The position numbers and the translations under genes are program-made. The notes beneath the pieces were generated by a model. The model was given only the letters and a program-made list of their open reading frames with translations, made no database searches and was not told the DNA's origin. Positions 1,720 through 25,231 of a stretch of DNA of 64,000 nt are shown one piece after another. The DNA is from an uncultured Acidobacteriota bacterium (GTDB lineage Bacteria; Acidobacteriota; JAQAZP01), in the NCBI GenBank assembly GCA_963836075.1, contig CAWIIB010000009.1:576001-640000 (forward strand), written 5' to 3'. How positions within the stretch are numbered: position 1 is the stretch's first letter; every line of letters starts with the position of its first letter.

Positions 1720-1867
1720 GCCTAACAACCACATGCAACGGCCAAGCCGAATCCGTCACGCTGGTTGCATACCGCGCGGTCAATCAAAAGTCACGTGCGG
1801 GAACTACCAGGCATTGCCAAAGCAACCAGCGCGCCGGCCGGCTTGCCGCTGATGGGTGGCGTTATAC
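1720..1867 (+). repeat. attC, family B
   Basis: gcctaacaaccacat.caacggccaagccg..gctggttgc-53 nt-gcaaccagc..ggcttgccgctgatg..gttatac. Confidence 0.9.
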
Positions 1868-1886
1868 GCAAAGAGATATTTAAAGG

Positions 1887-2354
1887 ATGACAGAATCCGA
1901 AAGCATCAAGTATCGACTGATGATTGATGGTGAAGAGGATATTGTATCAAGCTTGGTGCAAACGTCATTCATGAAACACATCGCTTCATACTACAAACAG
2001 GATGGGATTAACGAGGTATTACGACTATCTGAACCATTTTCTATCAAAGCTCGGAATGAAGCTGGCAACGTGTTCATCGTATGTATGATCGGCTCTAAGC
2101 TTGCAGGAATGATGGAGTATAGAGACCCGGCACATATTGGTTTACTGTTTGTAGATCCAGATTATATGGGCCGAGACATCGGAGGAGGATTCATTGCTGA
2201 AGCGAAAGAGCGAGCGAAGGGCACTTTTGATGTAATAACAGTGAATGCCTCTCCCAACTCCGTCGCATTCTATGCAAAATACGGTTTCACTCACATTGGA
2301 GGAGTGAAGGAGGACGGGGGTATAGTATTTTATCCTATGGCCTTAGCTATTTAG
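1887..2354 (+). CDS. GNAT-family N-acetyltransferase
   Basis: LFVDPDYMGRDIG and VNASPNSVAFYAKYGF motifs. Confidence 0.9.
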   Translation: MTESESIKYRLMIDGEEDIVSSLVQTSFMKHIASYYKQDGINEVLRLSEPFSIKARNEAGNVFIVCMIGSKLAGMMEYRDPAHIGLLFVDPDYMGRDIGGGFIAEAKERAKGTFDVITVNASPNSVAFYAKYGFTHIGGVKEDGGIVFYPMALAI

Positions 2355-2360
2355 AGAATC

Positions 2361-2476
2361 GTATAACAAACCCATTCACCTGGCAGCCAGGTGTCACGGC
2401 CCTTGCTGAGCAAACGGTCGTTCTCCTGGTGGCAACGGCCGTGCCACCTGCCCGCAGGTGATGGGTGACGTTAGAT
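2361..2476 (+). repeat. attC, family A
   Basis: gtataac...gttagat, family A core. Confidence 0.9.
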
Positions 2477-2489
2477 GCGAGAGGTTCTT

Positions 2490-2987
2490 ATGAAATGTAG
2501 ATATTTTCAATTTGTAGTGCTTACCACTATTATTCTGAGCACTCATGCATTTGCTCATGTCGACACGATACTGCCCTTAAAAGATGGCGTGATAACGGGG
2601 TTACCCGAGCAATACCATCCGGCCTTGTTCGATGCAAATGAGCCCTCCATCCAAATCGGCCAGAACAAACTTGTCTTCCCACCATGCATAGCGAAGTACT
2701 TTCTCACGGACATGCGATTTGAACCGAATATCGACGACTGCAGTATTGAAATTAGCGGATCTTGGTATCACAACTCGTCAATCTTACCGCCATATATTTC
2801 AATCGATATTCATCCAGAGGAGCGACACTATTACTATTCGATACTACTTTCTCTAGAATCCCTGGAAATAATCCATGTTCAAGTGGTTATAAAAGAAAAG
2901 CATGTAACTTCCTATAACGAGATATCCATCAATGATCCCTGTAAGGCCCTATTGTCGAAATCATACTCAAAATTACCATTGCCATAG
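2490..2987 (+). CDS. Exported hypothetical protein
   Basis: RBS gagg; signal peptide ending AFA-H. Confidence 0.8.
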   Translation: MKCRYFQFVVLTTIILSTHAFAHVDTILPLKDGVITGLPEQYHPALFDANEPSIQIGQNKLVFPPCIAKYFLTDMRFEPNIDDCSIEISGSWYHNSSILPPYISIDIHPEERHYYYSILLSLESLEIIHVQVVIKEKHVTSYNEISINDPCKALLSKSYSKLPLP

Positions 2988-3029
2988 CAGAGGGTATTGA
3001 ATCACTGTTTAATAGGTTTTAGAAGGCGC

Positions 3030-3145
3030 ATCTAACAAACCCATTCACCTGTCAGCCAGGTGTCACGGCCCTTGCTGAGCAGCCAGTCGTTTCCCTGGTG
3101 GCAACGGCCGTGCCACCTGTCCGCAGGTGATGGGTAACGTTGTGC
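3030..3145 (+). repeat. attC, family A
   Basis: atctaac...gttgtgc. Confidence 0.9.
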
Positions 3146-3156
3146 AAAAATAACTC

Positions 3157-3185
3157 TTGACAATACGTACATGATAACGTACGTT
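3157..3185 (+). promoter_or_regulatory. Sigma70 promoter/operator of yefM-yoeB cassette
   Basis: TTGACA-17-TACGTT with two acgtac motifs overlapping the spacer and -10. Confidence 0.65.
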
Positions 3186-3206
3186 TGATGGTGTAGGAGG
3201 TGCACC

Positions 3207-3449
3207 ATGGCAACCATTACAGCAACAGAGGCAAGGGCCAAGCTTTACAGCTTGATAGACGAAGCAGAGAACTCCCACGAGCCCATTGTGATCACAGGAA
3301 AACGAGGTAACGCAGTGTTGGTTTCCGAAAACGACTGGAACGCCATAAAGGAAACATTGTTCTTGCTTTCCATTCCTGGCATGCGTGAATCGATTGTTGA
3401 GGGCATGAAAGAGCCGTTGGAGGAATCTTCTAAAAATCTCGATTGGTAG
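3207..3449 (+). CDS. yefM: Phd/YefM antitoxin
   Basis: ITATEARAKLYSLID..HEPIVITGKRGNAVLVS..ETLFLLSIPGMRESI. Confidence 0.92.
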   Translation: MATITATEARAKLYSLIDEAENSHEPIVITGKRGNAVLVSENDWNAIKETLFLLSIPGMRESIVEGMKEPLEESSKNLDW

Positions 3450-3454
3450 GACGG

Positions 3455-3715
3455 ATGTGGGACCTCTACTTCACGAAACGGGCACAGAAGGACGCAAAGA
3501 AAATAGCTGCGGCAGGTCTGAAGAATAAGACAAAGCAACTTCTAGAAATCATCCGTGAAAACCCATTCCAAAATCCCCCTCCATACGAAAAATTGGTTGG
3601 CGATTTAGCCGGCGCATATTCCCGACGTATCAACATTCAACATCGTTTAGTGTACCAAGTATATGAAAAGGAGAAGATCGTACGGGTACTCCGAATGTGG
3701 ACCCACTATGAATGA
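3455..3715 (+). CDS. yoeB: Txe/YoeB toxin
   Basis: PPYEKLVGDLAGAYSRRINIQHRLVY..MWTHYE. Confidence 0.92.
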   Translation: MWDLYFTKRAQKDAKKIAAAGLKNKTKQLLEIIRENPFQNPPPYEKLVGDLAGAYSRRINIQHRLVYQVYEKEKIVRVLRMWTHYE

Positions 3716-3722
3716 ACAGAAT

Positions 3723-3868
3723 GCACAACCACCACATTCAGCGGCCAAGCCAATTCCGTCACGCTGGTTGCATACCGAGCGGTCAATCAGATGGCCCGTT
3801 ATAACGCTGTCAAGCATTGCCAAAGCAACCAGCGCGCCGGGGCTTGCCGCTGATGTGAGGCGTTAGGC
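3723..3868 (+). repeat. attC, family B
   Basis: gcacaac...gttaggc. Confidence 0.9.
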
Positions 3869-3879
3869 CGAGGAAAAGC

Positions 3880-4356
3880 ATGATTACAACAAAGCATATT
3901 CTATGCGCCACAGTTTTATTGACAGCCTTTTGCCTATGCCCAGTCTGCTTATCAAATGAGCCTCCATTGAAGCTTGATCCAATAGTTCTGTCTGGTCCGT
4001 ATGAAGTTGAGTTGGGTGAATGGGAGCCGGCGCTGGAATTGGGAACTGATATTCAAACCATCACTCCACCTGTCCAAATATCACTTAGCACAGAGAAGGC
4101 ACCAGGACCGAAGCCAGAAATTCAAAGTGTTCGTCTAATAAAGCCCTTTCCGGATGGTTCTAAAGTCATCCACAGCTACTCATTTTGGGAGATTCGTAAG
4201 GATGGAAAAATCGATATTTGTTTCAGCACTGGCCACGGTGGAGTGTATATGACGGTATCAATCTCAAGTGATCGACTTATAGGAACAGCTGAGACATTTT
4301 GGGATTTTCCTAGGCAAACCCAAAGGGCCAAGGTGCAACTGAAGCGGGTTCATTGA
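3880..4356 (+). CDS. Exported hypothetical protein, paralog 2 of 3
   Basis: About 20 aa differences of 158 relative to 1232..1708. Confidence 0.85.
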   Translation: MITTKHILCATVLLTAFCLCPVCLSNEPPLKLDPIVLSGPYEVELGEWEPALELGTDIQTITPPVQISLSTEKAPGPKPEIQSVRLIKPFPDGSKVIHSYSFWEIRKDGKIDICFSTGHGGVYMTVSISSDRLIGTAETFWDFPRQTQRAKVQLKRVH

Positions 4357-4367
4357 AGCAAAGCTCG

Positions 4368-4515
4368 GCCTAACAACCACATGCAACGGCCAAGCCGAAT
4401 CCGTCGCGCTGGTTGCAGACCGCGCGCTAAACCAGATGTCCCGTTTCGGCGCTTTCAAGCAATGCTGGAGCAACCAGCGCGCCGGCCGGCTTGCCGCTGA
4501 TGTGGGGCGTTAGGC
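4368..4515 (+). repeat. attC, family B
   Basis: gcctaac...gttaggc. Confidence 0.9.
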
Positions 4516-4532
4516 CGAAGATGAGACAGATC

Positions 4533-5003
4533 ATGAAGAGATTTATTACATACACCACAATACTTCTACCTGTTTTAATCCTATGCTCAGCCGGCATATC
4601 AGATGAGCATCCTCTGAAGCCCAATCCAAAGGATATATCTGGTCCATATCAAATAGTGTTAGGTGAATGGATACCAGCTCTAGATATAGGAGCTGACGTG
4701 AAGTTCATTACCCCACCTCATCAAATAATGCTTAGCACTGAGATTTTACCGGGTCCCAAGAATGCACTTGGCAATGCTCGTTATTTAAAGCCCTATCCAG
4801 AGGGTTCGCATTCAATACACAGCTACTCATTCTGGGAGATCCTCGATGATGGCAGCATCTTTATTTCTTTTAGCACCGGCTACAGCGGACTATTTATGAC
4901 GTTAACCGTCTCGGGTGATAAGCTTCTAGGAACAGCGGAAACGTTTTGGGATTTTCCGAGGCAAACCCAGACAGCAGAGGTCCAACTGAAGCGTATTCAA
5001 TAG
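4533..5003 (+). CDS. Exported hypothetical protein, paralog 3 of 3 (more diverged)
   Basis: Shares SGPY..LGEW.PAL..G.D..ITPP and GTAETFWDFPRQTQ with the other paralogs. Confidence 0.85.
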   Translation: MKRFITYTTILLPVLILCSAGISDEHPLKPNPKDISGPYQIVLGEWIPALDIGADVKFITPPHQIMLSTEILPGPKNALGNARYLKPYPEGSHSIHSYSFWEILDDGSIFISFSTGYSGLFMTLTVSGDKLLGTAETFWDFPRQTQTAEVQLKRIQ

Positions 5004-5015
5004 AAATGAGGTTTG

Positions 5016-5131
5016 GCCTAACAAACCCATGCACCTGTCAGCCAGGTGTCACGGCCCTTGCTGAACATACGGTCGCTCATCTGGTGGCAACGGCCGTGCC
5101 ACCTGCCCGCAGGTGATGGGTGACGTTATGT
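5016..5131 (+). repeat. attC, family A
   Basis: gcctaac...gttatgt. Confidence 0.9.
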
Positions 5132-5150
5132 GTATATAAAGGAATGTTAA

Positions 5151-5711
5151 ATGCGTAGCGGTCTTATTAGTGTTTGCTTGTTGGCTACATTTTTTCTCTC
5201 TTCAATGCAGACACACTCACAAGAGAATGTTCAACCAACGCCATGGGAAAAGAGAATAGCTGCATATCAATCAGAATATCCTGATTTGCCACCCCTAAAG
5301 CTATCCAAGAAGCTAAAGGAGCACTTCCTTTTTTTGATGGATTCTGAACTAGGCATCGTATTTGGGTATTTTTGTTACGAGGCAGGCCAACCGCCAAAGG
5401 CACGAATATCTTGCTTCCGCTTGCTTGAGAGACGGAGGATTCTAGCTTTTCGCTACTTACTCCGCTTTGGGAATCCTGGGAGCAAGCTATATGCCGTTGA
5501 AAGCCTATACCTGCTAAAAGCGTGGGGATATGACATACCTGAGGAAGATACTCTACTCATTGAACAAGTTCTTAAATCTGAAGACCGTGCTGATGTTTGC
5601 AATGGTTGTATGGTGTCCACGGAGCCTTTGCATCGTGCCCTGACTCAAAAGGATCTCGAGCGAGTCGAAGAGAATTGGCAGGCATACAAAAAGATGGGTT
5701 GGGTAAGATAG
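5151..5711 (+). CDS. Exported hypothetical protein
   Basis: Signal-like N-terminus; fills the cassette; CxGC near C-terminus. Confidence 0.75.
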   Translation: MRSGLISVCLLATFFLSSMQTHSQENVQPTPWEKRIAAYQSEYPDLPPLKLSKKLKEHFLFLMDSELGIVFGYFCYEAGQPPKARISCFRLLERRRILAFRYLLRFGNPGSKLYAVESLYLLKAWGYDIPEEDTLLIEQVLKSEDRADVCNGCMVSTEPLHRALTQKDLERVEENWQAYKKMGWVR

Positions 5712-5719
5712 CAGAGAAC

Positions 5720-5834
5720 ACATAACAATCCCATACACCTGTCAGCCAGGTGTCACGGCCCTTGCTGATCTGACGGTCGTTTTGCTGGCGGCAACGGCCG
5801 TGCCACCTGCCGCAGGTGATGGGTGGCGTTATAC
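5720..5834 (+). repeat. attC, family A
   Basis: acataac...gttatac. Confidence 0.9.
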
Positions 5835-5849
5835 GGCAAAGGCTAGATT

Positions 5850-6395
5850 ATGGATATCGTTTGGCGAGTAGTGATAGTGATTGTTGTCACAGTCATAGTG
5901 AATGTATCGATCTTCCTATCTCCAAGACGACGCCATGAATTATCCAATGAGACATCCATAGAGCTCCGATATCCTCTAGGCTTTTTGATTATTAGCATCA
6001 TAGGTATTGCCTTAGCCAGCATGATGGTTCTTGTAGCAATAAATAAAGACAGCCTTCGCGAAGCACTACCGCCGACTATCGTATCCATTCCCTTTCTCTT
6101 GTTGGGTCTGTACATTCTTCTAGAGTTGAGAAAGAAGATAGTCCTTCGTCCAGATGGTTTCTACTCTCATACACCGTGGAAGCATGACTCATTCGTACCT
6201 TGGTCCAGCATACGGGTCGTACGCTATTCAGCGGTGAATGACTGGTTTATCCTAGATATCGGAAACAGCATGCACCGAATCAGCACCCACTTTGTATATT
6301 TCCCAGCTTTTCTTGATGGGTTAATGAAGAATGTGGAGCCATCTATTTGGAAGGCAGCAATCGAAAAGTATGCCAGGCCGAAAGTAGCCGTATAA
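5850..6395 (+). CDS. Three-TM membrane protein with possible bacterial PH-like C-domain
   Basis: TM helices followed by FVPWSSIRVVRY; stop codon lies in the attC R'' box. Confidence 0.75.
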   Translation: MDIVWRVVIVIVVTVIVNVSIFLSPRRRHELSNETSIELRYPLGFLIISIIGIALASMMVLVAINKDSLREALPPTIVSIPFLLLGLYILLELRKKIVLRPDGFYSHTPWKHDSFVPWSSIRVVRYSAVNDWFILDIGNSMHRISTHFVYFPAFLDGLMKNVEPSIWKAAIEKYARPKVAV

Positions 6396-6504
6396 CAAGC
6401 CCATTCACCTGATGCCAGGTGTCACGGCCCTTGCTGGGCATCCGGTCGATCTCCTTGGTGGCAACGGCCGTGCCACCCGCCACAGGTGATGGGTGACGTT
6501 CGAC
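6390..6504 (+). repeat. attC, family A
   Basis: gtataac...gttcgac. Confidence 0.9.
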
Positions 6505-6512
6505 GTAAAAGA

Positions 6513-7067
6513 ATGAAATTAAAATCGACAAAATCAGATGATCCAGCATTCGTCAGGCTCGTTGCCTCGATTCTTGATTCTGCTGTAGCCGAGAGCACTC
6601 CCGACATTGTGACGGTCATTCAGATCAAGAATTGGTTTGACCATAAGTGGCTCAAATTCTCGGGCAAGGTGTTGGGGGCATTCGGAATATGGAAGTCGGA
6701 ACTGACAGTACCTCCATTCCATCCGAACCGAGTCGTCAGCCAAACGGTAAGCCGCTTGACTGATGGTCTATACGAAGAATTCGAGGCTCCTCCCCTCCAC
6801 GTTTTGCAGCCCAGTTCTGCAAATCACAGCCGGAAGATGAGATACCAAACGGAATCAGGTGTCTTTGCGTGGTGGACAAGCAACACGGTTGAAAATGATC
6901 AAGGGAGCCTGATGGTTTACACCCAGATTGATGGTGAGTCCGTTACCTGGTTTCTTGGGTTTCAGAAAACAGATGACTGGAAGATTATCAAAAGGATAGG
7001 CATTCCAGACGTCATCATTGAAAAGCATATGAAGGGCGTCGAACAACCCCATTCACCTGTCGGCTAG
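6513..7067 (+). CDS. Hypothetical protein (reads into attC)
   Basis: Fills the cassette; KNWFDHKWLKFSGK..VPPFHPNRV. Confidence 0.8.
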   Translation: MKLKSTKSDDPAFVRLVASILDSAVAESTPDIVTVIQIKNWFDHKWLKFSGKVLGAFGIWKSELTVPPFHPNRVVSQTVSRLTDGLYEEFEAPPLHVLQPSSANHSRKMRYQTESGVFAWWTSNTVENDQGSLMVYTQIDGESVTWFLGFQKTDDWKIIKRIGIPDVIIEKHMKGVEQPHSPVG

Positions 7068-7153
7068 GTGTCACGGCCCTTGCTGATCTACCGGGCGTGC
7101 ACCTGGCGGCAACGGCCGTGCCACCTGCCTGCAGGTGATGGGTGACGTTCGAC
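7038..7153 (+). repeat. attC, family A
   Basis: gtcgaac...gttcgac. Confidence 0.9.
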
Positions 7154-7159
7154 GCAAAG

Positions 7160-7489
7160 ATGATAAAAATGAGTAACAGTGAAGAGATTCGCAAAGAACG
7201 TGAAAGGCTGAAGCAGAAATATAGTGGTGCTTTCAGTCGATTGAGCCAGGTTCTCTTCACTGAAGATCCCATAGGAATAAATTTCGGTGACAATACCGAC
7301 GAATACGAACCTGAGGTTGGTACTATCCTCTCAAGGCTAAGTCATTGTCGTTCAACGGATGAAATCCAAAAGGTTGTGCACGAGGAGTTTGTTAAGTGGT
7401 TCGACTCCGAAATAGCGGGCCCATTTGAGAGATACGAGACTGTAGCTAAACGTATTTATGATGAGGTGTTGCCAACCCTATCAGGATGA
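7160..7489 (+). CDS. DUF1871/YugE-like protein
   Basis: DPIGI..DEYEPEV..IL..F.KWF motif. Confidence 0.65.
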   Translation: MIKMSNSEEIRKERERLKQKYSGAFSRLSQVLFTEDPIGINFGDNTDEYEPEVGTILSRLSHCRSTDEIQKVVHEEFVKWFDSEIAGPFERYETVAKRIYDEVLPTLSG

Positions 7490-7496
7490 TTGGGAC

Positions 7497-7614
7497 GTCG
7501 AACAACCCCATTCACCTGTTGCCCTGGTGTCACGGCCCTTGCCGAGCATCAGGTCGCCATCGCTGGCGGGCAACGGCCGTGCCACCTGTCTGCAGGTGAT
7601 GGGTGACGTTCGGC
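7497..7614 (+). repeat. attC, family A
   Basis: gtcgaac...gttcggc. Confidence 0.9.
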
Positions 7615-7634
7615 CTGCATAGCTGAAAAATATA

Positions 7635-7669
7635 TTGACAAATCGAATGGTATCACATATAATACCATC
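7635..7669 (+). promoter_or_regulatory. Consensus sigma70 promoter with operator palindrome; leaderless start
   Basis: TTGACA-17-TATAAT, ATG at +7; atggtat..ataccat inverted repeat. Confidence 0.8.
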
Positions 7670-8096
7670 ATGAAGCCAAGCATAGTCATTGATACTAGTG
7701 TCCTCATTGCCGCTTTGCGGTCTAAGCATGGAGCCTCGTTCAGGCTTCTTAAGTTAATTGGTAAGAACAAGTTTGAACTAAACGTTTCAGTCCCGCTCAT
7801 TCTTGAACTTGAAGCAGTGGCCAAACGGCCCGGGAAAGTGCCAGGCCTTACTAGTGAAGATATTGACGACGTTATAGACTACATCTGTCGAGTCTCCCAT
7901 CACCGAATGATCCATTTTCTGTGGCGACCAACGCTCAGAGACCCTGGTGATGACCTCGGTACTTGAACTTGCCGTCGAAGCCGAATGTGACTATATCGTC
8001 ACCCACAATGTACGCGACTTCGACAAGGCTGAACAGTTTGGGATCTCTACTGTGACGCCTCGGCAGTTCTTAGGGATCATTGGAGAGCTACCATGA
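7670..8096 (+). CDS. PIN-domain toxin (apparent +1 frameshift at ~7958)
   Basis: VIDTSVLIAALRS..LRDPGDD; removing one G restores LVLELAVEAECDYIVTHNVRDF, ending in an ATGA overlap. Confidence 0.85.
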
Positions 8097-8329
8097 GTAC
8101 CATTAGCCTCAGAATCCCGGAATCTCTGCATGAGCGCGTGAGAGAACTTGCCAAGCAAGAAAACATCTCAATAAATCAATTCATCTCTACGGCTCTCGCT
8201 GAGAAAATTTCAGCATTACTGACCGCCGAGTACCTTGAAGAACGGGCGCTCCGTGGAAGACGCGCCAAGTTTAATCGTGCTCTCTCCAAAGTCAGTGACG
8301 CTGCTCCGGACAAATCTGACGAAATCTAA
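8093..8329 (+). CDS. Ribbon-helix-helix (HicB-like) antitoxin
   Basis: MSTISLRIPESLHERVRELAKQENISINQFI. Confidence 0.85.
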   Translation: MSTISLRIPESLHERVRELAKQENISINQFISTALAEKISALLTAEYLEERALRGRRAKFNRALSKVSDAAPDKSDEI

Positions 8330-8355
8330 TTGAATACTTGAATGGCCATAAAGAG

Positions 8356-8470
8356 GCCGAACCAGCCCATGCACCTGTCAGCCAGATGTCACGGCCCTTG
8401 CTGAGCAACCGATCGTACCTCTGGCGGCAACGGCCGTGCCACCTGTTGCAGGTGATGGGTGACGTTATAA
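8356..8470 (+). repeat. attC, family A
   Basis: gccgaac...gttataa. Confidence 0.9.
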
Positions 8471-8512
8471 AGCGATACATGAACCGGCATCTCGATGCGA
8501 GAGGTAGAGCTC

Positions 8513-18273: not shown

Positions 18274-18307
18274 TCCATTTACTTAGATAAACGAGCAACG
18301 GGAGGGA

Positions 18308-18526
18308 GTGGCTCACATGAACAGACCGGTAGTGGTTATTGGGATTGTTATCATCGTCAACGCGTGCATTTGGGGATTCACCATGATCATGGCATCCCGT
18401 GCACTCAGCGGTACTGGAGCATATGAGCAGATACAGAACATCCTTGCCGCTGGCGCCGCTTCGTCGCTCATCGTGGTGGGTGGAGGTCTTGGCGGTCTGG
18501 TCACGCGCTTGAAGTCGAAGGAGTGA
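18308..18526 (+). CDS. Small two-TM membrane protein
   Basis: RBS ggaggga; two hydrophobic segments. Confidence 0.6.
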   Translation: MAHMNRPVVVIGIVIIVNACIWGFTMIMASRALSGTGAYEQIQNILAAGAASSLIVVGGGLGGLVTRLKSKE

Positions 18527-18591
18527 CCACCGCCTGCTTGCCGGCCGGGTTGTGTGCGAGTGGGTTCGCTGCAACCTAATTGTCGTTAGGC
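18520..18591 (+). repeat. Degenerate attC
   Basis: gttaggctt at 18585 complements aagcctaac at the end of the next cassette; left arm is poorly conserved. Confidence 0.45.
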
Positions 18592-18611
18592 TTTCATGTG
18601 AGAGGAATTCA

Positions 18612-18779
18612 ATGAAAAAGCTACCTCTCCTTTTCGCGGTTATCAGCTTCATCCTTGCGATTGTCATTTTCTTCGGAACTGAAGGGTATCGGGCCATCTA
18701 CAGTGGGCTGTTCTTTTTCTTGATATCTGTTGTGTTTCTTTGCAGAGCTCGGAAGCGTGGACAGAAAGCCCCAGAGTAA
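18612..18779 (+). CDS. 55-aa two-TM peptide
   Basis: RBS gagagga; MKKLPLLFAVISFIL..YSGLFFFLI. Confidence 0.65.
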   Translation: MKKLPLLFAVISFILAIVIFFGTEGYRAIYSGLFFFLISVVFLCRARKRGQKAPE

Positions 18780-18812
18780 TCCTGTTGCCAGTGAGCACTC
18801 ATTGAGGGTGAA

Positions 18813-18927
18813 GCCTAACAAGCCCATGCACCTGGCAGTCATGTGTCACGGCCCTTGCTAAGCATCCGGTCGTTCATCTTGTGGCAATGACCGTGCCACC
18901 TGCCGCAGGTGATGGGTAACGTTGGCC
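18813..18927 (+). repeat. attC, family A
   Basis: gcctaac...gttggcc. Confidence 0.9.
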
Positions 18928-19001
18928 CTAAAGAAATGACTTGACGGAACGTCATCGATGGATATATTGTAATACTATAGCCTATCGATGGAGGGCATGG
19001 C

Positions 19002-19209
19002 ATGACTACAGTAACCATATCACCCAAATTTCAGATCGTTATCCCGCGGCCAATCCGTGACCGCCTGCGCCTCCGACCAGGACAAAAAATCCAGGTTGTT
19101 GAGTACCGATGGCAGACTTGAGCTGATACCAGAGCGCGACATTGAAGAGCTACGTGGATTCTTGAAAGGGATCAACACTGACTTTGAGCGGGAGGATGAC
19201 AGAGTATGA
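19002..19209 (+). CDS. AbrB-type antitoxin (apparent +1 frameshift at ~19106; missing from the ORF track)
   Basis: MTTVTISPKFQIVIPRPIRDRLRLRPGQKIQVVEY joined to DGRLELIPERDIEELRGFLKGINTDFEREDDRV; ATGA overlap with vapC. Confidence 0.85.
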
Positions 19210-19583
19210 ACATAGTCGATTCCTCCGGATGGCTTGAATACTATGCTGGTGGAAGAAATGCCAAGCACTTCCTGCCAGTACTAAAGGATATTGAATCTCT
19301 GGTTGTACCTACCGTTTCACTCTATGAAGTTTTTAAGGTCGTACTTCGAGAACGTGGTGAGGACGATGCGCTTCAGGCTGTCAGTGCTATGCAAAAGGGC
19401 CTCGTAGTAGATCTAACGCCTAGGCTTTCACTATCTGCCGCCAAACTCAGCATCAAGCACTCATTGCCTATGGCAGATAGCATTATTCTTGCAACGGCAC
19501 GAGAATATGAAGCTACGATATGGACACAGGATGTTGATTTTAAGGGTTTGCCCGAGGTCCAGTACTTCCAAAAGAAAAAATAG
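19206..19583 (+). CDS. vapC: VapC PIN toxin
   Basis: NIVDSSGWLEY..EVFK..LPMADSIILATA..WTQDVDF. Confidence 0.9.
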   Translation: MNIVDSSGWLEYYAGGRNAKHFLPVLKDIESLVVPTVSLYEVFKVVLRERGEDDALQAVSAMQKGLVVDLTPRLSLSAAKLSIKHSLPMADSIILATAREYEATIWTQDVDFKGLPEVQYFQKKK

Positions 19584-19585
19584 AG

Positions 19586-19731
19586 GGCCAACAACCACAT
19601 TCAACGGCCAAGCCGATTCCGTCACGCTGGTTGCATACCGAGCGGTCAATCAGACGGCCCGTTACAGCGGTTCCAGGCATTGCCAAAGCAACCAGCGCGC
19701 CGGGGCTTGCCGCTGATGTGGGGCGTTATGC
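19586..19731 (+). repeat. attC, family B
   Basis: ggccaac...gttatgc. Confidence 0.9.
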
Positions 19732-19741
19732 CAAAAACATC

Positions 19742-19776
19742 TTGACAGACGTAACCCCAGAGGTTACATTCAGGAT
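19742..19776 (+). promoter_or_regulatory. higBA promoter/operator
   Basis: TTGACA-17-TACATT; gtaacc-ccaga-ggttac inverted repeat. Confidence 0.75.
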
Positions 19777-20055
19777 ACGATAAGAAGCTTCGCGCACAAA
19801 GGCCTTGAGAGGTTTTTCCTTAACGGCACCATGAAGGGCATTCAGGCTGCTCATGCACAGAAATTGAGCGATATTCTTGATTTACTTGATGCCTCGGTGA
19901 CTGTAGAAGATATGCGATTTCCTGGCTCAGGGCTGCATAGGCTGAAGGGCAAACTTAAAGATCACTATAGCGTGAAAGTATCTGGCAATTGGCGCGTCAT
20001 TTTCACGTTCAAAAGTGGGGACGCATATGTTGTTGATTACATTGACTATCACTGA
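19777..20055 (+). CDS. higB: HigB toxin with ACG in place of ATG
   Basis: (M)IRSFAHKGLERFF..LHRLKG..SVKVSGNWRVIF..VDYIDYH. Confidence 0.85.
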   Translation, partial: TIRSFAHKGLERFFLNGTMKGIQAAHAQKLSDILDLLDASVTVEDMRFPGSGLHRLKGKLKDHYSVKVSGNWRVIFTFKSGDAYVVDYIDYH

Positions 20056-20067
20056 TGAGGTGCTGAT

Positions 20068-20370
20068 ATGAAGAACAGAAAGAGAAAGCCTGCCCATCCC
20101 GGTGGCATTTTAAAGAGGCAGTATCTTGATGTGCTCGGTCTCTCTGTGTCTGGACTTGCGAGCATTCTAGGTGTTTCTCGAAAAACTGTATCCAAAATCA
20201 CCAATGAGCGTGGTTCTGTAACGCCCAATATGGCTCTTAGGCTTTCTAAAGCCTTTGGTACCTCTGCGGAGCTTTGGATGAACTTGCAGCAGGCTTTTGA
20301 TCTTTGGGTGGCTACACACGAATCAACCGACTGGAAAAAGATCAAGCAGCTCGACTTTCCTGCAGCATAG
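20068..20370 (+). CDS. higA: HigA antitoxin
   Basis: PAHPGGILK..LGVSRKTVSKI..MALRLSKAFGTSAELWMNLQ. Confidence 0.92.
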   Translation: MKNRKRKPAHPGGILKRQYLDVLGLSVSGLASILGVSRKTVSKITNERGSVTPNMALRLSKAFGTSAELWMNLQQAFDLWVATHESTDWKKIKQLDFPAA

Positions 20371-20399
20371 ACAGAATTGGCTTGGCTAGCAGATAATTG

Positions 20400-20545
20400 G
20401 CATAACAACCACATTCAACGGTCAAGCCGAATCCGTCACGCTGGTTGCATTCCGTGCGATCAATCTAATGGCATGTGCCGGCACTTCCAGGCATTGCAAA
20501 AGCAACCAGCGCGCCGGAGCTTGCCGCTGATGTGGGGCGTTAGGC
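20400..20545 (+). repeat. attC, family B
   Basis: gcataac...gttaggc. Confidence 0.9.
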
Positions 20546-20562
20546 GTCGGAGGAGTATTGAA

Positions 20563-21111
20563 TTGAAATTAAGGTGTAAAGGGTTATTGATTGTTTGCAC
20601 CATTGCCCTACACGCTGTTTTCAGCCTTGCATACAGTCAATGTGATATACCGCGACCAATCAATAGCGAATACATAGCAGCCCTGAAGGATATTGCCTAC
20701 TATAATGAAATGGGTGGAGGCGGAGATAAATGCTATTGGGAAATAGTCGGACTTGGACTACCCGTTGTTGAAGAGCTCATTGACCTTATTGACGATCCAA
20801 TTCTAACCAAACATCTTGTCCCCCACTGGGGCGGCCAATATGCGGTAGGTGATATTGCTCTAAACTTGCTTTTGGATATCATTCATATTCCAGTTGTCGA
20901 TTTACTGCCAAATGTTGATCCAAAAGACTTTAAAACTATGGGGTTCGGCGTTTACTGGAAATATGTTAGGACTGATCCCAAAAACCGCTTTGAAGTTCAG
21001 TCTGACATTCAAAAATGGTTTGAGAAGCACAAAGAATCTCTTTACTGGAAGGATATTCAGGGGCTCCAGGCTGGCGGACAGTACCAGTTGAAGCCAGAAA
21101 AGGACGCCTAA
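20563..21111 (+). CDS. Exported hypothetical protein
   Basis: AGGAG RBS then TTG start; signal peptide; stop lies in R''. Confidence 0.75.
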   Translation: MKLRCKGLLIVCTIALHAVFSLAYSQCDIPRPINSEYIAALKDIAYYNEMGGGGDKCYWEIVGLGLPVVEELIDLIDDPILTKHLVPHWGGQYAVGDIALNLLLDIIHIPVVDLLPNVDPKDFKTMGFGVYWKYVRTDPKNRFEVQSDIQKWFEKHKESLYWKDIQGLQAGGQYQLKPEKDA

Positions 21112-21222
21112 CCATCCCATTCACCTGGCAGCCAGGTGTCACGGCCCTTGCTGGGCAACCGGTCGTTCTCCAGGTGGCAACGGCCGTGCCACCTGGCCGC
21201 AGGTGATGGGCAGGCGTTAGGC
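21106..21222 (+). repeat. attC, family A
   Basis: gcctaac...gttaggc. Confidence 0.9.
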
Positions 21223-21257
21223 GAAGTAACAATAATTGACATTCGAACAATATCGTC

Positions 21258-21575
21258 ATGACTGTTAGAGATTACTTAAACAGCAAACGCAAACAAGCAT
21301 GGCTTATACTTTGCTTCGGTATATTCCATACGCTCATAGGATTTGTGGTCCTATTGCTAACAACATATTTTGGCCTATTTTTATCAGCCATTGGATTTCT
21401 GGTCTATCTGTACGGGTTTTATCGGATCATACAGGCGGCCAAATGCCCAAACTGTAAGAACACGATCATCGGTGGTATTAACTTCAACCGTTACATTGGT
21501 AAGTATATTAACTATTGCCAGTTTTGTGGCAGATCACTAGACGAAGAATTGGGCGTGGATGTGATTGATGAGTAG
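21258..21575 (+). CDS. Two-TM protein with C-terminal zinc ribbon
   Basis: CPNC...CQFCG. Confidence 0.75.
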   Translation: MTVRDYLNSKRKQAWLILCFGIFHTLIGFVVLLLTTYFGLFLSAIGFLVYLYGFYRIIQAAKCPNCKNTIIGGINFNRYIGKYINYCQFCGRSLDEELGVDVIDE

Positions 21576-21612
21576 CAGATTTCATGAAACGAGTAAGCGA
21601 AATGAGAACAAC

Positions 21613-21728
21613 GCCTAACCATCCCATTCACCTGTTGGCCAGCTGTCACGGCCCTTGTTGATCATCCGGTCGTTCTCACAGGCGGCAACGGCCGTGCCAC
21701 CTACCACAGGTGATGGGTGACCCTAGGT
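21613..21728 (+). repeat. attC, family A, crossover triplet mutated (CCT)
   Basis: gcctaac...cctaggt. Confidence 0.85.
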
Positions 21729-21731
21729 CAA

Positions 21732-22043
21732 ATGATGAACAAGCAAAAATATTATCGAAGAATATTGCGCTATAAGGACGATCATATACCCTTATTAGTC
21801 TTTATGGGTGGATGGTGGAGTATCCTGAAAGTATTCATATTCGGTTTCGGATTGTATTTGGTAATTGAAGGAATAACAGCAATAAAGATGATTGGTATCT
21901 TTCTAATTGGTTATTCATTGGGGAAGATAGCGGCGGCCTTCAATTCATATTTTTCATCAATGAGGCAATGGGAACACCTGAATGACGTGATTGATTGGGA
22001 AAAAGTGTCCGAATCCGCGAGTTCTAAGGAAAAGTTGACCTAA
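21732..22043 (+). CDS. Two-TM membrane protein
   Basis: W..L..VIDWEKV C-terminal motif; stop lies in R''. Confidence 0.7.
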   Translation: MMNKQKYYRRILRYKDDHIPLLVFMGGWWSILKVFIFGFGLYLVIEGITAIKMIGIFLIGYSLGKIAAAFNSYFSSMRQWEHLNDVIDWEKVSESASSKEKLT

Positions 22044-22155
22044 CAAGCCCATTCATCTGATGGCCAGGTGTCACGGCCCTTGCTTGACAGCCGGTCGCTA
22101 TCGCTGGTGGGCAACGGCCGTGCCACCTGTCCGCAGGTGATGGGTAACGTTAGGT
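22038..22155 (+). repeat. attC, family A
   Basis: acctaac...gttaggt. Confidence 0.9.
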
Positions 22156-22179
22156 CAGCGACTAAAGAGGAGATGTGTA

Positions 22180-23136
22180 GTGCTATTAATTGCTCAAGAA
22201 TTGAAGCACTGTAGGTTTGTGCTTATATCCACTTTCTGTATCTGCCTTGCAGTGATTCTGGTTTCCGGCTGTGAGGCTAACAAGCGCAGTGTTAAGGAAC
22301 TCAGCGTTCAAACTCCTGACGTAACATTGTTTGCACGCACCGCGGGGCATCTGGAGTCCGGTAACGTGCTCATAGCAGTTAACGGTGGGCCTGGCTTGTC
22401 CAGTCACTATATGCTCAGCTTAGAGCGCTTGGCGGGCACTGAGCTCGCTGTGATCACCTATGATCAAAGAGGGGTGAGCCGATCGACGGACGTACCCCCC
22501 ATTCCTGATAATTTCACGTTTCAGAAATATGTGGAGGATCTTGAGTATGTGCGGGCAGCGAGTGGAGTGGAGACCGTTCACCTGTTGGGACATTCATGGG
22601 GTGGCCTCGTGGCGTTGAGCTACGCTGTAACCTATCCGGAGAGGATACGTTCGATAGTCCTAATAGGCTGTGGCCCACCCACATGGGACCAGGTACGAAC
22701 ATGTTTTGAGAAGATCCAGCAAAGATTCGTGGAATTGCAAGCTTCGGGGCTGATCCCCAGCGGTCTGACACCGGGGACAAAGGAGTTCGGGGAAGCGATC
22801 CTCGCAGCTTACTTCTCTGATCCGACCTTCTGGTTTTCGTCAGACGACGAAGGAAGTGAGCCGGTACAAAATCAACGAGTGAACCAGCTGACTTGGACAG
22901 CTGTTCAGGATTACGATTTGACTTCCGAACTTTCTAGGCTGGAGCACCGAGTATTGGTGCTCCGAGGCGAGGGTGATCCATGTGAGCCGTCCGCCGGCCA
23001 GGCCGTTGAAGAAGCACTGTCGTCCGCCGAAATCCTGTCTGTTATGTTGAAAGATTGCGGACACTTCTGGCACGAGTGTCCCGAGGAGTTTTTCGCAGCG
23101 GTTAGACCGTTCCTTTACGAATCAGTGACGGAGTAG
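22180..23136 (+). CDS. Alpha/beta hydrolase (proline iminopeptidase-like) lipoprotein
   Basis: NGGPG, YDQRG, GHSWGG, GEGD and CGH motifs; VSGC lipobox. Confidence 0.9.
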   Translation: MLLIAQELKHCRFVLISTFCICLAVILVSGCEANKRSVKELSVQTPDVTLFARTAGHLESGNVLIAVNGGPGLSSHYMLSLERLAGTELAVITYDQRGVSRSTDVPPIPDNFTFQKYVEDLEYVRAASGVETVHLLGHSWGGLVALSYAVTYPERIRSIVLIGCGPPTWDQVRTCFEKIQQRFVELQASGLIPSGLTPGTKEFGEAILAAYFSDPTFWFSSDDEGSEPVQNQRVNQLTWTAVQDYDLTSELSRLEHRVLVLRGEGDPCEPSAGQAVEEALSSAEILSVMLKDCGHFWHECPEEFFAAVRPFLYESVTE

Positions 23137-23181
23137 GCATAAGACTAGCAGGGCACTTGAGATCTAGCCAGACTGGATTGC

Positions 23182-24263
23182 GACTTGACATCAAGTTTGA
23201 ACTGCGACAGTAGCCCTTACGCATAGACGCACTCCTCAGGTGTGAAGAAGCCAAGGATTTTCCTGGGCCGAGTGTTCAGCTTTGCAGCAATGGCGTTGCA
23301 TTGCTGCTGGCTCACCGAGGCCATCGATTCGGATTTAGGCAGATATTGGCGGATGAGGCCGTTGGTGTTTTCATTAGTGCCACGTTCCCAAGAGTGATAA
23401 GGCGTGGCGAAGTAAAACTGAACTCCGGTATTTTGCTCGATTAATTTGTGGCCATGGAATTCCGTACCATTATCAGCAGTGATCGTCTTAATTTTCTTTT
23501 GATGACGTTTGATAATTTTAAGTAACCTGGCGTTGAGCTGGTCGATGGTTCTCGCCTTGAGCTTGCCTATGAGGGTGTATCTGGTCTTCCGCTCCACCAG
23601 GGTGACGATACAGTCTTTACTTCCCTTGCCCAGCACCGTATCGATCTCCCAGTGGCCGAAGGTCTTCCAGGTTTCAACATCCGCAGGGCGCTCTGATATG
23701 TGGCGCTTCCCGGCCAAGCGGCCCCTGCTGTCATAGGCGCCATAGCGCTTGCGACGTTGCTTAAAAGCACCGCGAAGGTGGGTGTAGAGGTCACCGCCGG
23801 CTTCCATGTCGGCCCAGACGTATAGATAGATGGTTTCGTGGCTGATATTTAGCAGGTTCTCCCGTTTCAGATAGCCGGAGACCTGCTCAGGGCTCCAGTC
23901 GAGAAGCAGCAGAGATTCGACCATGGCAAAGTCCTGGGCTGTGAACTGCTGATTTCTTCGAGAGCGGCTACGCCGGCCTCGTGTTCGACTGTCAGCCTTG
24001 AAAGGACGATAACCCGTATCGCTGCACTGGTTTCGTCTGATCTCACGGTAGATGGAGCTGCGGTGGCGGCCGAGGATCCTGGCTATCCTCGAGGTTTTAA
24101 AACCTTGTTTTCTGAGGGCAGAGATCATATATCTCTCTTCACGGGTGATCTGGTGATAAATCATGGCTGCCTCCCTTTAATTGGTCGTTGAGAGAAGCAG
24201 CCATTATCCCAGATCGCCCGTGCTTTAAGCACAGGTGTCGCACTTAGTATATGAATTCGCGCC
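23182..24263 (-). mobile_element. IS30-family insertion sequence with TGC target duplication
   Basis: Imperfect 28-bp IRs ending tgcgaca/tgtcgca; TGC at 23179-81 and 24264-66. Confidence 0.88.
23217..24164 (-). CDS. IS30-family DDE transposase
   Basis: GHWEIDTV, TADNGTEF, PYHSWERGTNENTNGLIRQY and LNTRPRK motifs. Confidence 0.95.
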   Translation of the reverse strand: MIYHQITREERYMISALRKQGFKTSRIARILGRHRSSIYREIRRNQCSDTGYRPFKADSRTRGRRSRSRRNQQFTAQDFAMVESLLLLDWSPEQVSGYLKRENLLNISHETIYLYVWADMEAGGDLYTHLRGAFKQRRKRYGAYDSRGRLAGKRHISERPADVETWKTFGHWEIDTVLGKGSKDCIVTLVERKTRYTLIGKLKARTIDQLNARLLKIIKRHQKKIKTITADNGTEFHGHKLIEQNTGVQFYFATPYHSWERGTNENTNGLIRQYLPKSESMASVSQQQCNAIAAKLNTRPRKILGFFTPEECVYA

Positions 24264-24379
24264 TGCGAACAAGCCCATTCACCTGTCAGCCAGGCGTCAC
24301 GGCCCTTGCTGATCAATCGGTCGTCATTCTGGTGGCAACGGCCGTGCCACCCGCCTGCAGGTAATGGGTGGCGTTCCCG
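24264..24379 (+). repeat. attC, family A
   Basis: tgcgaac...gttcccg. Confidence 0.9.
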
Positions 24380-24464
24380 AAGAAAGAAATATTAAGATCT
24401 TTTAGCGGCAGACCGAATATGGTATCATATTAGGACTGGACGCATTATGTAAGGAGGGCCGTCA

Positions 24465-24740
24465 ATGAGTATTGAAAATGACATCCGACCAATCACCTAT
24501 CTAAAATCAAGAGCAGCAGACTTACTGAAACAGGTAAACGAAACCCAGCGACCCGTCATCATCACCCAGAACGGAGAACCTAGGGCGGTTCTTCAAGATC
24601 CCCAAAGCTATGAAAGCATGAGAAATGCCCTAGGACTCCTGAAGCTGATCTCGCAAGGCGAAGAGGATATCCGCAAGGGAAAGGTCCGCACTAAGGATGA
24701 GGTCTTTTCGAGAATCGAAAAGGCGATACGCAAGAAATGA
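24465..24740 (+). CDS. Phd/YefM antitoxin
   Basis: DIRPITYLKSRAADLL..PVIITQNGEPRAVL. Confidence 0.9.
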   Translation: MSIENDIRPITYLKSRAADLLKQVNETQRPVIITQNGEPRAVLQDPQSYESMRNALGLLKLISQGEEDIRKGKVRTKDEVFSRIEKAIRKK

Positions 24741-25063
24741 AAGAAACATTCGGAGTCTTTTGGGCCGCCGTAGCTGAAAAGGATCTTTTGGGAGTCGTCG
24801 ATTTCATTGCTGAAGAAGATCCTGAAGTTGCCCTGAATATCCTGAACAAGATCAAGGATCGCACATCTACGCTTGATCATTACCCTATGCGGGGTCGTAA
24901 CGTACCAGAGCTACTACAACATGGCATGGCACGATACCGTGAACTTGTGATCAACCCCTGGCGGGTGATCTACAGGATTGAAGAAAAGAAAGTGTATGTC
25001 GTTTCTGTTATTGACTCACGCCGTAACGTGGAAGACATTCTGCTGGCGAGATTTCTAAGATAA
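24737..25063 (+). CDS. RelE/ParE toxin
   Basis: AEKDL..I..D...P.RGR.VPEL..YREL..PWRVIYRI..DSRR. Confidence 0.9.
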   Translation: MKETFGVFWAAVAEKDLLGVVDFIAEEDPEVALNILNKIKDRTSTLDHYPMRGRNVPELLQHGMARYRELVINPWRVIYRIEEKKVYVVSVIDSRRNVEDILLARFLR

Positions 25064-25065
25064 TT

Positions 25066-25231
25066 CGAGAACAACCACATTCAACGGTCAAGCCGATTCC
25101 GTCACGCTGGTTGCAAACCATACTGCCATTCATACGGCTCGATTCGCCGCTGCCAGGCCTTACCAAAGCAACCAGCGCGCCGGCCGGCGCTTCGCACCGA
25201 CTCGGCTTGCCGCTTATGTGGGGCGTTAGCC
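25066..25231 (+). repeat. attC, family B (about 18 nt insertion in right arm)
   Basis: cgagaac...gttagcc. Confidence 0.88.

Follow-up and report, generated by a model that had tools for sequence, protein, structure and literature searches.

The 53-nt loops of the family-B attC sites in the window (the whole 64,000-nt stretch of DNA analyzed) form the tip of a canonical attC recombination hairpin, its variable terminal structure (VTS). Their divergence is likely the product of ordinary attC evolution, in which this tip, in a family of long attC sites specific to the genus, drifts at a near-synonymous rate and is occasionally altered by patch conversion. Loop distance tracked synonymous distance (dS) at a ratio of approximately 0.5-1.4 (zero for recent duplicates) in seven groups of sibling or orthologous cassettes and one metagenome contig, a small set of groups of which several came from related metagenome contigs. 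The sole exception was the lineage of one loop, 1769-1821.

The cassette array and its attC sites

Positions 1-27,900 of the window are a sedentary chromosomal integron cassette array. Repeat families and nhmmer matches identified 32 attC sites in 27.9 kb, with the ORFs all on one strand (Table 1), and GC content was 0.45-0.53 within the array vs 0.58-0.68 past 28 kb. The left end of the array falls just outside the window, to the left, and a full-length intI (G000:C9:572416-573354, minus strand) is located 2.7 kb left of the first attC site; it scored 377 bits against TIGR02249, for which the cut-off is 265. The cassette contents, including toxin-antitoxin pairs, GNAT and hydrolases, were typical of integrons. 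The same genome (G000) has a second array, also with family-B sites, and an Rfam search matched no family in the window or in this second array. Families A and B are a new and well-sampled attC family pair, with unusually long sites, from a poorly sampled genus; the family-B profile was present in 3 of 41 relatives searched, all of the same genus.

Table 1. Coordinates of the array, the sibling cassettes and the family-B attC sites
Feature	Position	Strand	Loop	Remarks
Cassette array	1..27912	+		23 family-A and 9 family-B attC sites; cassette ORFs on + strand
Sibling cassette 1	1215..1861	+		from TT of upstream R' core to G of own R' core
Sibling cassette 2	3863..4509	+		
Third sibling cassette	G000:C9:1279203-1279857	-		second array
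Family-B attC	1724..1863	+	1769-1821	belongs to 158-aa cassette 1232-1708; loop anomalous, probably replaced
Family-B attC	3727..3864	+	3772-3824	Phd/YoeB-like toxin-antitoxin cassette
Family-B attC	4372..4511	+	4417-4469	sibling 158-aa cassette 3880-4356
Family-B attC	13867..14007	+	13912-13964	
Family-B attC	15395..15532	+	15440-15492	left arm GCTGTTTGC
Family-B attC	15876..16014	+	15921-15973	left arm GCCGGTTGC
Family-B attC	19590..19727	+	19635-19687	PIN-domain cassette
Family-B attC	20404..20541	+	20449-20501	HigB/HTH cassette
Family-B attC	25070..25227	+	25115-25167	Phd/ParE cassette

The exact pattern GCTGKTTGC-N53-GCAACCA had 8 plus-strand matches in the window and 0 in 100 shuffles. 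The ninth site (15912) was missed by this pattern because of its GCCGGTTGC arm, and its centre is likewise 53 nt. Family-B sites were 138-158 nt long, and the right arm of the site at 25070..25227 contained an additional GC-rich palindromic insert of approximately 20 nt. All 15 family-B sites of the genome had the inverse core AAC at the 5' end, and the core at the 3' end was CGTT in 14 and CATT in 1. Homology among the three siblings began at TTAGGC and stopped at GGCG|TT, which is the G|TT crossover. The inner stem of family-B sites was a near-constant 12 bp (CGCTGGTTGC / GCAACCAGCG).

For the 15 sites of the genome, RNAalifold predicted a consensus of 37 pairs, 2 of which showed compensatory changes; the R box, L box and inner stem were paired and 53 nt were left unpaired. 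The predicted fold also had unpaired bases separating the R box from the L box, as well as individual extra bases along the '' arm. When 12 sites were folded with DNA parameters, the bottom strand was predicted to be more stable than the top strand in all 12 (-32.6 to -46.2 kcal/mol vs -27.6 to -39.2 kcal/mol). Taken together, the cores and G|TT boundary, the predicted fold, the bottom-strand stability and the array beside an integrase identify these sites as attC.

The loops were also searched for structure and signals of their own. A conserved fold inside the loop was rejected, as RNAalifold left the loop unpaired and no helix covaried, and when all contiguous helices were scanned across 40 distinct loops, the only candidates were of 3-4 bp and conflicted with one another. 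The best candidate, a bulged 6-bp helix (GG(T)CAAT / ATTGCC), was complementary in 77-83% of cells; it was rejected against letter shuffles, which equalled this in 458 and 910 of 1000 trials, and double changes were absent from it. A promoter and terminator search in the loops gave nothing consistent and no consensus promoter, with 22 promoter-like sites found vs a shuffle expectation of 22.1.

Family-A loops had been described in the initial annotation as mostly 23 nt. The same mode was recovered, but at 25 nt when measured from TTGC to GCAA, because the earlier arms were drawn one base further in on either side. Our pattern parsed 24 of 29 family-A sites, leaving 5 out; the centre measured 25 nt in 16 of those parsed and ranged from 24 to 27 nt in the remaining 8. 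The two families, with tips of 25 nt (A) and 53 nt (B), are related and lie in the same array. Compensatory changes distinguish their inner stems, and the motif CGGTC is present in the loops of both.

Loop length and conservation

This genome, two congeners and metagenome contigs together supplied a wider sample of 47 unique full family-B sites. The length of 53 nt, earlier described as locked, held for all 9 sites in the window, but elsewhere it is a mode rather than a fixed value: 41 of the 47 loops were 53 nt, 3 were 52 nt, and 51, 54 and 57 nt occurred once each. One of the 15 family-B sites in the genome had the 57-nt loop. Orthologues of the PIN cassette in congeners G001 and G002 had loops of 51 and 52 nt, and loops of sibling cassettes across genomes differed by 1-2 gap positions. 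A metagenome match with a 48-nt gap (L167) was left out of these counts; the family profile misses it at E 1e-8.

Each loop had also been reported as unique. The nine loops are indeed distinct within the window, with 7-25 differences of 53 in pairwise comparison (mean 17.7), but genome-wide the loop at 20449-20501 has an identical copy in the second array, where its HigB/HTH cassette is duplicated. The term hypervariable was an overstatement, since many of the 53 columns are conserved. Eighteen were at least 90% conserved and formed two blocks (positions 1-28 and 43-52), 19 were conserved at 70-90%, and the 16 below 70% sat mostly at positions 29-42. Six indel steps were counted in the loop vs 360 substitution steps, and 36 vs 71 in the right arm. 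The scarcity of indels in the loop is a real oddity. Simple neutrality does not cover this scarcity or the 18 near-invariant columns, which occur without a covarying helix.

Loop divergence in sibling cassettes

Loop figures were calculated as Jukes-Cantor distances and set against dS. Loop distance was 0.27 with dS 0.22 for site 4372 and its second-array sibling, 0.27 with 0.20 for L192-L165, 0.45 with 0.51-0.53 for site 25070 and G001, and 0.72 with 0.57-0.62 for L179-L180. The PIN-cassette trio gave 0.41 with 0.33-0.36, 0.31 with 0.35-0.64, and 0.36 with 0.49-0.76. For the duplicated HigBA cassette, the loop distance was 0 with dS 0-0.014. Close pairs behaved similarly, with 1 loop difference and 0 across 900 upstream bases for L181-L175, and 0 loop differences and 1 across 220 upstream bases for L166-L192. 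Four metagenome runs, all as assembled contigs, were compared with the stretch; a contig of run X1 spanned 1233-1865 with 18 differences, of which at least 16 fell in the ORF and no more than 2 in the loop. The initial annotation had held that loop divergence equal to dS across more sibling pairs, with neutral indel rates, would argue against special diversification of the loop. Equality with dS was largely found; neutral indel rates were not, because indels were scarcer than expected. Once the 18 conserved columns were set aside, the free columns were somewhat faster than the whole-loop rate, which leaves room for a modest mutational acceleration.

The sibling cassettes at 1232 and 3880 reproduced the contrast first reported for them, with 39 of 477 coding differences (8.2%), 0 of 15 from stop to attC, and 19 of 53 in the loop. 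In both pairs that include the 1769-1821 loop, loop distance was 0.49 vs dS of 0.11-0.15. Loop changes per sibling lineage were 13, 6 and 6 vs 12, 27 and 17 coding changes (exact multinomial P = 0.002). This loop had 19 and 19 differences from its siblings and 11-13 from non-siblings (family mean, 17), the arms of its site retained sibling-specific markers, and 6 of its 8 non-consensus states were A. No donor was found, and even the closest loop had 11 differences in 53. For the three siblings, the coding tree had a bootstrap value of 39 with 4, 2 and 3 informative sites, and rooting by a 56%-identical family-A paralogue left it unresolved; the data therefore show a disproportion in branch length and not a topological conflict. 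Siblings of the 158-aa cassette were not found in G001 or G002 with the query used. The PHI recombination test was not significant (P = 0.99 for whole sites and 0.94 for loops). From these comparisons, the loop at 1769-1821 is probably a replaced patch rather than the result of steady hypermutation. Loop swapping by gene conversion, one of the processes suggested initially, is the best reading of this anomalous pair, as the loop is nearer to non-siblings; however, this is a single case and lacks support from the PHI test.

Search for diversifying machinery

No reverse transcriptase (RT) was found nearby. PF00078 gave one match genome-wide, at C1:1070-1810, which is that of a group II intron because an Intron_gpII match comes next. 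Loop copies outside the two arrays were not found, only chance matches of 14-18 nt (E of at least 0.01). No base-specific substitution spectrum was seen, as all six classes occurred, and the transition:transversion ratio was 46:47 in the loop vs 195:116 in upstream DNA (P = 0.03). No DIVERSIFYING machinery was found in the form of a nearby RT, a template copy or a base-specific spectrum, and the marks of a diversity-generating retroelement, an RT near the tract and an adenine-type template repeat, were absent. A loose short-arm pattern scan of the genome contigs was discarded; it gave at least 117 stretches and, among the matches listed, none fits the family profile.

Interpretation

Under ordinary attC evolution, what the integrase would read on the folded bottom strand are the R and L boxes, which are paired, the central spacer, which is not, and the extrahelical bases; these parts, together with the 12-bp inner stem, would stay near-constant. 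The tip past the inner stem would be needed merely as a connector and presumably is not read by the integrase. About one third of tip positions are conserved; the remainder would drift at about the synonymous rate, so the loop would mark the line of descent of its cassette, as neutral sequence does. The loop thus appears to be mostly unconstrained. Occasionally, a loop patch could be replaced by gene conversion, through homologous recombination between two family-B attC sites, for which the near-identical flanks (45 nt on the left and approximately 40 nt on the right) would offer the homology. We propose such a replacement as the reason that, in one sibling, the loop has diverged far more than the gene.

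Other explanations account for parts of the data. The loop could have a sequence- and length-specific job of its own, as a binding site on the folded strand for a host or integron accessory protein or as a tertiary fold, with only the central 12-15 nt free. We consider this unlikely, although the two conserved blocks, their conservation without a covarying helix, the CGGTC motif common to both families and indels approximately 60-fold rarer than substitutions (2-fold in the right arm) are all consistent with it. Shared ancestry and homogenization could also give conservation, and the indel contrast may be mutational, because the right-arm indels lie in slippage-prone G/C runs and the palindromic insert. 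Furthermore, loops of 51-57 nt persist in the family, no binding partner is known, and promoter-like sites are no more frequent than expected. It is quite unlikely that the family-B tip, through its 53-nt length and two conserved blocks, is read on the folded strand by a sequence-specific partner, or folded in tertiary structure, in a manner that tunes excision while short-patch conversion swaps the central 12-15 nt; if it were so, the tip would tune the timing of excision of toxin-antitoxin-rich cassettes.

Two further explanations invoke faster change in the loop. Passive damage to single-stranded DNA exposed when attC folds is very doubtful as the main cause. The loop is predicted to be unpaired, its free columns may exceed dS somewhat when conserved columns are excluded, and the shifted transition:transversion ratio would fit. 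However, C-to-T changes were not in excess and all six classes were seen, whole-loop distance did not exceed dS for most of the sibling groups, the excess was limited to one lineage and not clock-like, and the X1 contig changed mainly in its ORF. Active diversification, whether through targeted mutagenesis or through copies drawn from a pool of templates (in the manner of a diversity-generating retroelement or similar), would give each cassette a made-to-order tag, and we regard it as highly improbable. It could draw on the distinct loops of the window, on the one sibling loop that is 36% different vs 6-8% in the gene, and on the prevalence of A in that loop. Neither the targeted form nor templating from a separate pool, both raised in the initial annotation, is supported: loop distances are near dS in the remaining sibling groups, duplicated and orthologous cassettes retain their loops (identical in recent duplicates), the X1 contig has a conserved loop, the spectrum is mixed, loop copies are confined to the two arrays, and the sole RT, that of the group II intron, is on another contig.

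Active diversification of attC centres would bear on the origin of cassettes and attC sites, but the evidence does not favor it. Ordinary evolution of these centres, as favored here, would mean that they act as weakly constrained DNA that follows cassette descent, perhaps with occasional patch exchange. The loop-versus-dS figures provide a quantitative benchmark reusable for other arrays, and the remaining puzzle is why indels are so scarce in a 53-nt tip that appears to be unpaired.

Comparison with known systems

The likeness to diversity-generating retroelements is superficial, consisting of a short tract that varies between similar copies; here the tract is non-coding, and an adjacent RT, a template repeat and an adenine-specific pattern are lacking. 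Closer parallels are found in integrons. In PMC5371416, the VTS is the part of attC sites that is described as variable, and attC sites within one chromosomal integron are reported to be approximately 80% identical; the lengths given are 120-129 bp for Vibrio attC and a range of 57-141 bp for attC. Gene conversion among 59-be (attC) sites was proposed in PMC1382264, and short-tract non-reciprocal exchange of this kind would explain homogeneous arms with a replaced loop. In that paper conversion is proposed as a homogenizing force, whereas here it would bring a different loop into a cassette, in one lineage and without support from PHI.

As in VCR and other species-specific 59-be families, many copies are present per array beside intI, with conserved ends that carry the RYYYAAC and GTTRRRY cores and with a narrow length distribution within the family. 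The bottom strand forms a hairpin (here predicted) in which the central spacer is unpaired and some bases are extrahelical; copies in one host are highly identical and variable in the centre. Unlike VCR, family-B sites, at 138-158 nt, are at or above the range quoted in PMC5371416, and for their tip the prediction is a 53-nt loop, mostly unpaired, above a 12-bp stem, where VCRs are described as a branched quasi-palindrome. Also unlike VCR and the 59-be families, two related families, A and B, occur together in one array.

Chromosomal integron context

G+C content in the window is 45-53% up to 27.9 kb and 58-68% beyond, and this first part is dense in two repeat families, A and B. In a whole-genome profile search, family A had 23 copies in the window and family B had 9, and each family had 6 further copies elsewhere on the same contig. 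The opposite strand encodes an integron integrase of full length (TIGR02249, 377 bits vs. a cut-off of 265), 2.7 kb to the left of where the repeats start. Cassette products comprise toxin-antitoxin pairs, a GNAT acetyltransferase, hydrolases, and many proteins without a known family. The integrase, the repeats, and this usual cassette mix together identify the first part of the window as a sedentary chromosomal integron and the repeats as its attC sites. An IS91/Y2 transposase gene lies between intI and the first attC and may cut the array off from its integrase and attI. Toxin-antitoxin genes were found in 5 of the 9 family-B cassettes of the window. Promoter-like sites were seen directly past the attC sites of some toxin-antitoxin cassettes (e.g., 16036 and 19742).

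A second, smaller array lies on the same contig. The 339-aa ORF adjoining it matches only positions 2-171 of the 315 in the integron-integrase model, and this integrase looks truncated. In the attC of the second array's duplicated HigBA cassette, the R' core reads GCATT rather than GCGTT. This is the one family-B site, among 15 in this genome, that is missing the conserved GTT, and it may be a dead site. A family of 158-aa proteins carries family-B sites on three copies and a family-A site on one; it has no Pfam match, and its N-terminus is hydrophobic and signal-peptide-like by eye.

Coordinates of features in and around the two arrays (G000:C9, the whole contig; C1, another contig of this genome; G002, a congener genome; L-numbers, extracted loci)
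Feature	Location	Strand	Remarks
IS91/Y2-family transposase gene (PF04986, PF14319)	G000:C9:574178-575338 (L002 8178-9338)	+	Between intI and first attC, just left of window
158-aa paralogous family, four members	Window 1232-1708, 3880-4356, 4530-4997; G000:C9:1279363-1279836		
Phd/YoeB toxin-antitoxin	Window 3207-3715		Family-B cassette
HigB-like/HTH toxin-antitoxin	Window 14779-15382		Family-B cassette
PIN toxin-antitoxin	Window 19206-19583		Family-B cassette
HigB/HTH toxin-antitoxin	Window 19831-20370		Family-B cassette
Alpha/beta-hydrolase ORF	Window 22180-23136		Adjoins rve/HTH_38 transposase gene
Transposase gene, rve + HTH_38 domains	Window 23217-24164	-	Inside array; IS30-like by domain content
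Phd/ParE toxin-antitoxin	Window 24465-25063		Family-B cassette
GC-rich palindromic ~20-nt right-arm insert	Window 25070-25227; L149, L178, L180, L188, G002:C36		Some family-B sites
Second, smaller cassette array	G000:C9:1269460-1279345	-	6 family-B and at least 4 family-A sites (L001, L006; region to 1281076)
Second-array HigBA attC	L001:5815-5952 (G000:C9:1273815-1273952)		
Group II intron, start of C1	G000:C1:800-2416 (L193)		515-aa reverse-transcriptase ORF, then Rfam Intron_gpII match, 65 bits

Structure, length, and variability of the family-B loop

The bottom-strand consensus fold of the 15 family-B sites of this genome contains 37 predicted pairs. The R box forms its terminal stem; a short spacer without pairs separates this from the L-box stem, whose '' arm has single extra bases. 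A 3-bp step follows, and then an inner stem of 12 bp in which CGCTGGTTGC is predicted to pair with GCAACCAGCG; no pairing is predicted for the 53 nt. In all 12 sites folded, the bottom strand was predicted to be more stable than the top, and three sibling cassettes could be aligned from the TT of the upstream core through the G of their own core. The predicted layout is that of canonical attC architecture, with the 53-nt tip, here called the loop, corresponding to the "variable terminal structure" described in PMC5371416. Family A is related to family B: its inner stem (CGGCCCTTGC/GCAACGGCCG) takes up the same place, with compensatory changes. Measured between arms TTGC and GCAA, the family-A center could be parsed in 24 of 29 sites, 16 of them with 25 nt and the other 8 with 24-27 nt. 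No helix inside the family-B loop was supported, the candidates being short and mutually exclusive; the likeliest of them, a 6-bp helix with a bulge, showed no compensatory change and was equaled by shuffles.

The initial annotation described a loop of exactly 53 nt without indels. This was true of all nine window sites: the exact arm pattern matched 8 plus-strand sites, each with 53 nt between the arms (0 matches in 100 shuffles), and the ninth, with one arm base changed, again had a 53-nt center. It was not true more widely, as the loop is 53 nt in 14 of the 15 sites of this genome but 57 nt in one, and two congener genomes (G001 and G002) have loops of 51, 52, 53, and 54 nt. A metagenome scan allowing 46-62 nt between the arms added 28 loci. 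De-duplication left 47 unique complete sites, with loops of 53 nt in 41, 52 nt in 3, and 51, 54, and 57 nt once each; 7 partial sites had loops of 53 (4), 52 (2), and 55 nt (1). Mapped onto a tree of these 47 sites, loop changes amounted to 360 substitution steps vs. 6 indel steps, and loop length is thus strongly, although not absolutely, conserved. The right arm required 71 and 36, respectively; however, its indels are located in G/C runs and the ~20-nt palindromic insert, so this contrast may be partly mutational.

The nine window loops are each unique, as had been claimed, differing at 7-25 of 53 positions (mean 17.7). Hypervariability applied to only part of the loop: among 40 distinct 53-nt loops, 16 columns were less than 70% conserved (mostly positions 29-42), 19 were 70-90% conserved, and 18 were at least 90% conserved. 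The mean pairwise difference was 17/53 for the loop vs. 6.6/83 for the arms.

Loop divergence compared with synonymous distance

All family-B sites were searched for cassettes with a common upstream gene, which were then compared using the Jukes-Cantor distance of the loop and the synonymous distance (dS), which is approximate for stop-to-stop frames. Sibling groups were few, some came from related metagenome contigs, and one run, X2, may be near the source sample. The reported divergence of the siblings at 1232 and 3880 was confirmed, with 39/477 coding, 0/15 stop-to-attC, and 19/53 loop differences; their arms differ at 1/45 (left) and 2/39 (right) positions.

Loop distance and dS of sibling cassettes (numbers after cassette names are attC positions in the window)
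Comparison	Loop	dS	Remarks
158-aa trio, 1724 vs. 4372	0.49	0.15	
158-aa trio, 1724 vs. second-array copy	0.49	0.11	
158-aa trio, 4372 vs. second-array copy	0.27	0.22	
L192-L165	0.27	0.20	
PIN-cassette trio (19590, G002, G001)	0.41, 0.31, 0.36	0.33-0.36, 0.35-0.64, 0.49-0.76	Additionally 1-2 gap positions apart
ParE cassette, 25070 vs. G001	0.45	0.51-0.53	One gap position
L179-L180	0.72	0.57-0.62	Short alignment, uncertain ORFs
Duplicated HigBA cassette, 20404 vs. second array	0/53 differences	0-0.014	
L181-L175	1 difference		0 in 900 upstream bases
L166-L192	0 differences		1 in 220 upstream bases

With comparisons involving loop 1769-1821 (attC 1724) set aside, the loop tracks dS, at a ratio of approximately 0.5-1.4. 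A loop distance several-fold above dS was seen only for pairs with that loop (0.49 vs. 0.11-0.15). A contig from metagenome run X1 covering 1233-1865 has 18 differences from the window, at least 16 of them in the ORF; it matches the window at three loop positions given for it, so that the loop holds at most 2.

Origin of loop variation

The search for a DIVERSIFYING machine covered reverse transcriptase, loop copies, and the substitution spectrum. The genome's single reverse transcriptase match is on C1 and directly followed by a group II intron RNA match; the nearby enzyme that had been envisaged was therefore not found. Nor was a template: away from the two arrays, loop sequences gave nothing more than chance matches of 14-18 nt. 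Seven sibling comparisons yielded 93 loop differences, which included all six classes (AG 22, CT 24, AT 21, GT 11, CG 8, AC 7), with no adenine-specific or cytosine-specific signature, and transitions to transversions were 46:47 in the loop vs. 195:116 in upstream DNA (P = 0.03).

Loop swapping or gene conversion, also proposed initially, fared better, owing to loop 1769-1821. In the 158-aa trio, per-lineage differences were 13, 6, and 6 in the loop vs. 12, 27, and 17 in the ORF, such that the lineage with the least change in the gene has changed most in the loop (P = 0.002, exact multinomial test). Loop 1769-1821 differs from each of its two siblings at 19 positions, compared to 17 for an average family pair and only 11-13 for several non-sibling loops, whereas the other two siblings are mutually nearest (12 differences). 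The arms around it retain markers common to the three siblings, and 8 of its 13 private states are non-consensus, clustered at positions 19-38. The simplest reading of these patterns is that this loop took over a patch of sequence from a different family-B site, with the invariant attC arms potentially supplying the homology; gene conversion among 59-be sites was proposed earlier for Vibrio (PMC1382264). However, three results weaken patch replacement: a donor was not found, with even the nearest loop 11 differences away; the PHI recombination test was not significant; and the trio's gene tree has no resolved branching. Two patterns hint at movement of attC parts from one cassette to another. 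The ~20-nt right-arm insert is in one sibling and missing from the other in two sibling groups, yet common to non-siblings, although repeated deletion could produce the same pattern; and a paralogue that shares 56% identity with the 158-aa gene bears a family-A site.

We propose that what the integrase would recognize in the folded bottom strand is the R box, the L box, and the unpaired features; these, with the inner stem, would be held constant by selection, perhaps aided by conversion. The tip may act as a connector in which about a third of positions are constrained and the rest drift, with rare patch exchange between sites uncoupling loop from gene. A drifting tip would make the loop a lineage mark of its cassette, and this is most likely what it is, rather than a made-to-order barcode: apart from loop 1769-1821, loops track dS, the duplicated HigBA loops are identical, and the spectrum carries no adenine-specific or cytosine-specific signature.

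Comparison with known attC sites

Of 41 relatives' genomes searched, 3 had the attC family, and these belong to a single genus; a family-profile screen of loci from a loose public-genome scan found none among the matches listed. A limited, unsystematic look at the literature found no published analysis of loop divergence against dS. Families A and B together form a new pair among the species-specific attC families of chromosomal integrons. They can be compared with the VCRs, which, as described in PMC5371416, share their array context, core sites, and hairpin features, along with a narrow length range and high identity within a host. Family-B sites are 138-158 nt, compared to the attC range of 57-141 bp quoted in PMC5371416. 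Unlike VCRs, the new sites have a tip for which little pairing is predicted, and a single array holds two attC families that are related.
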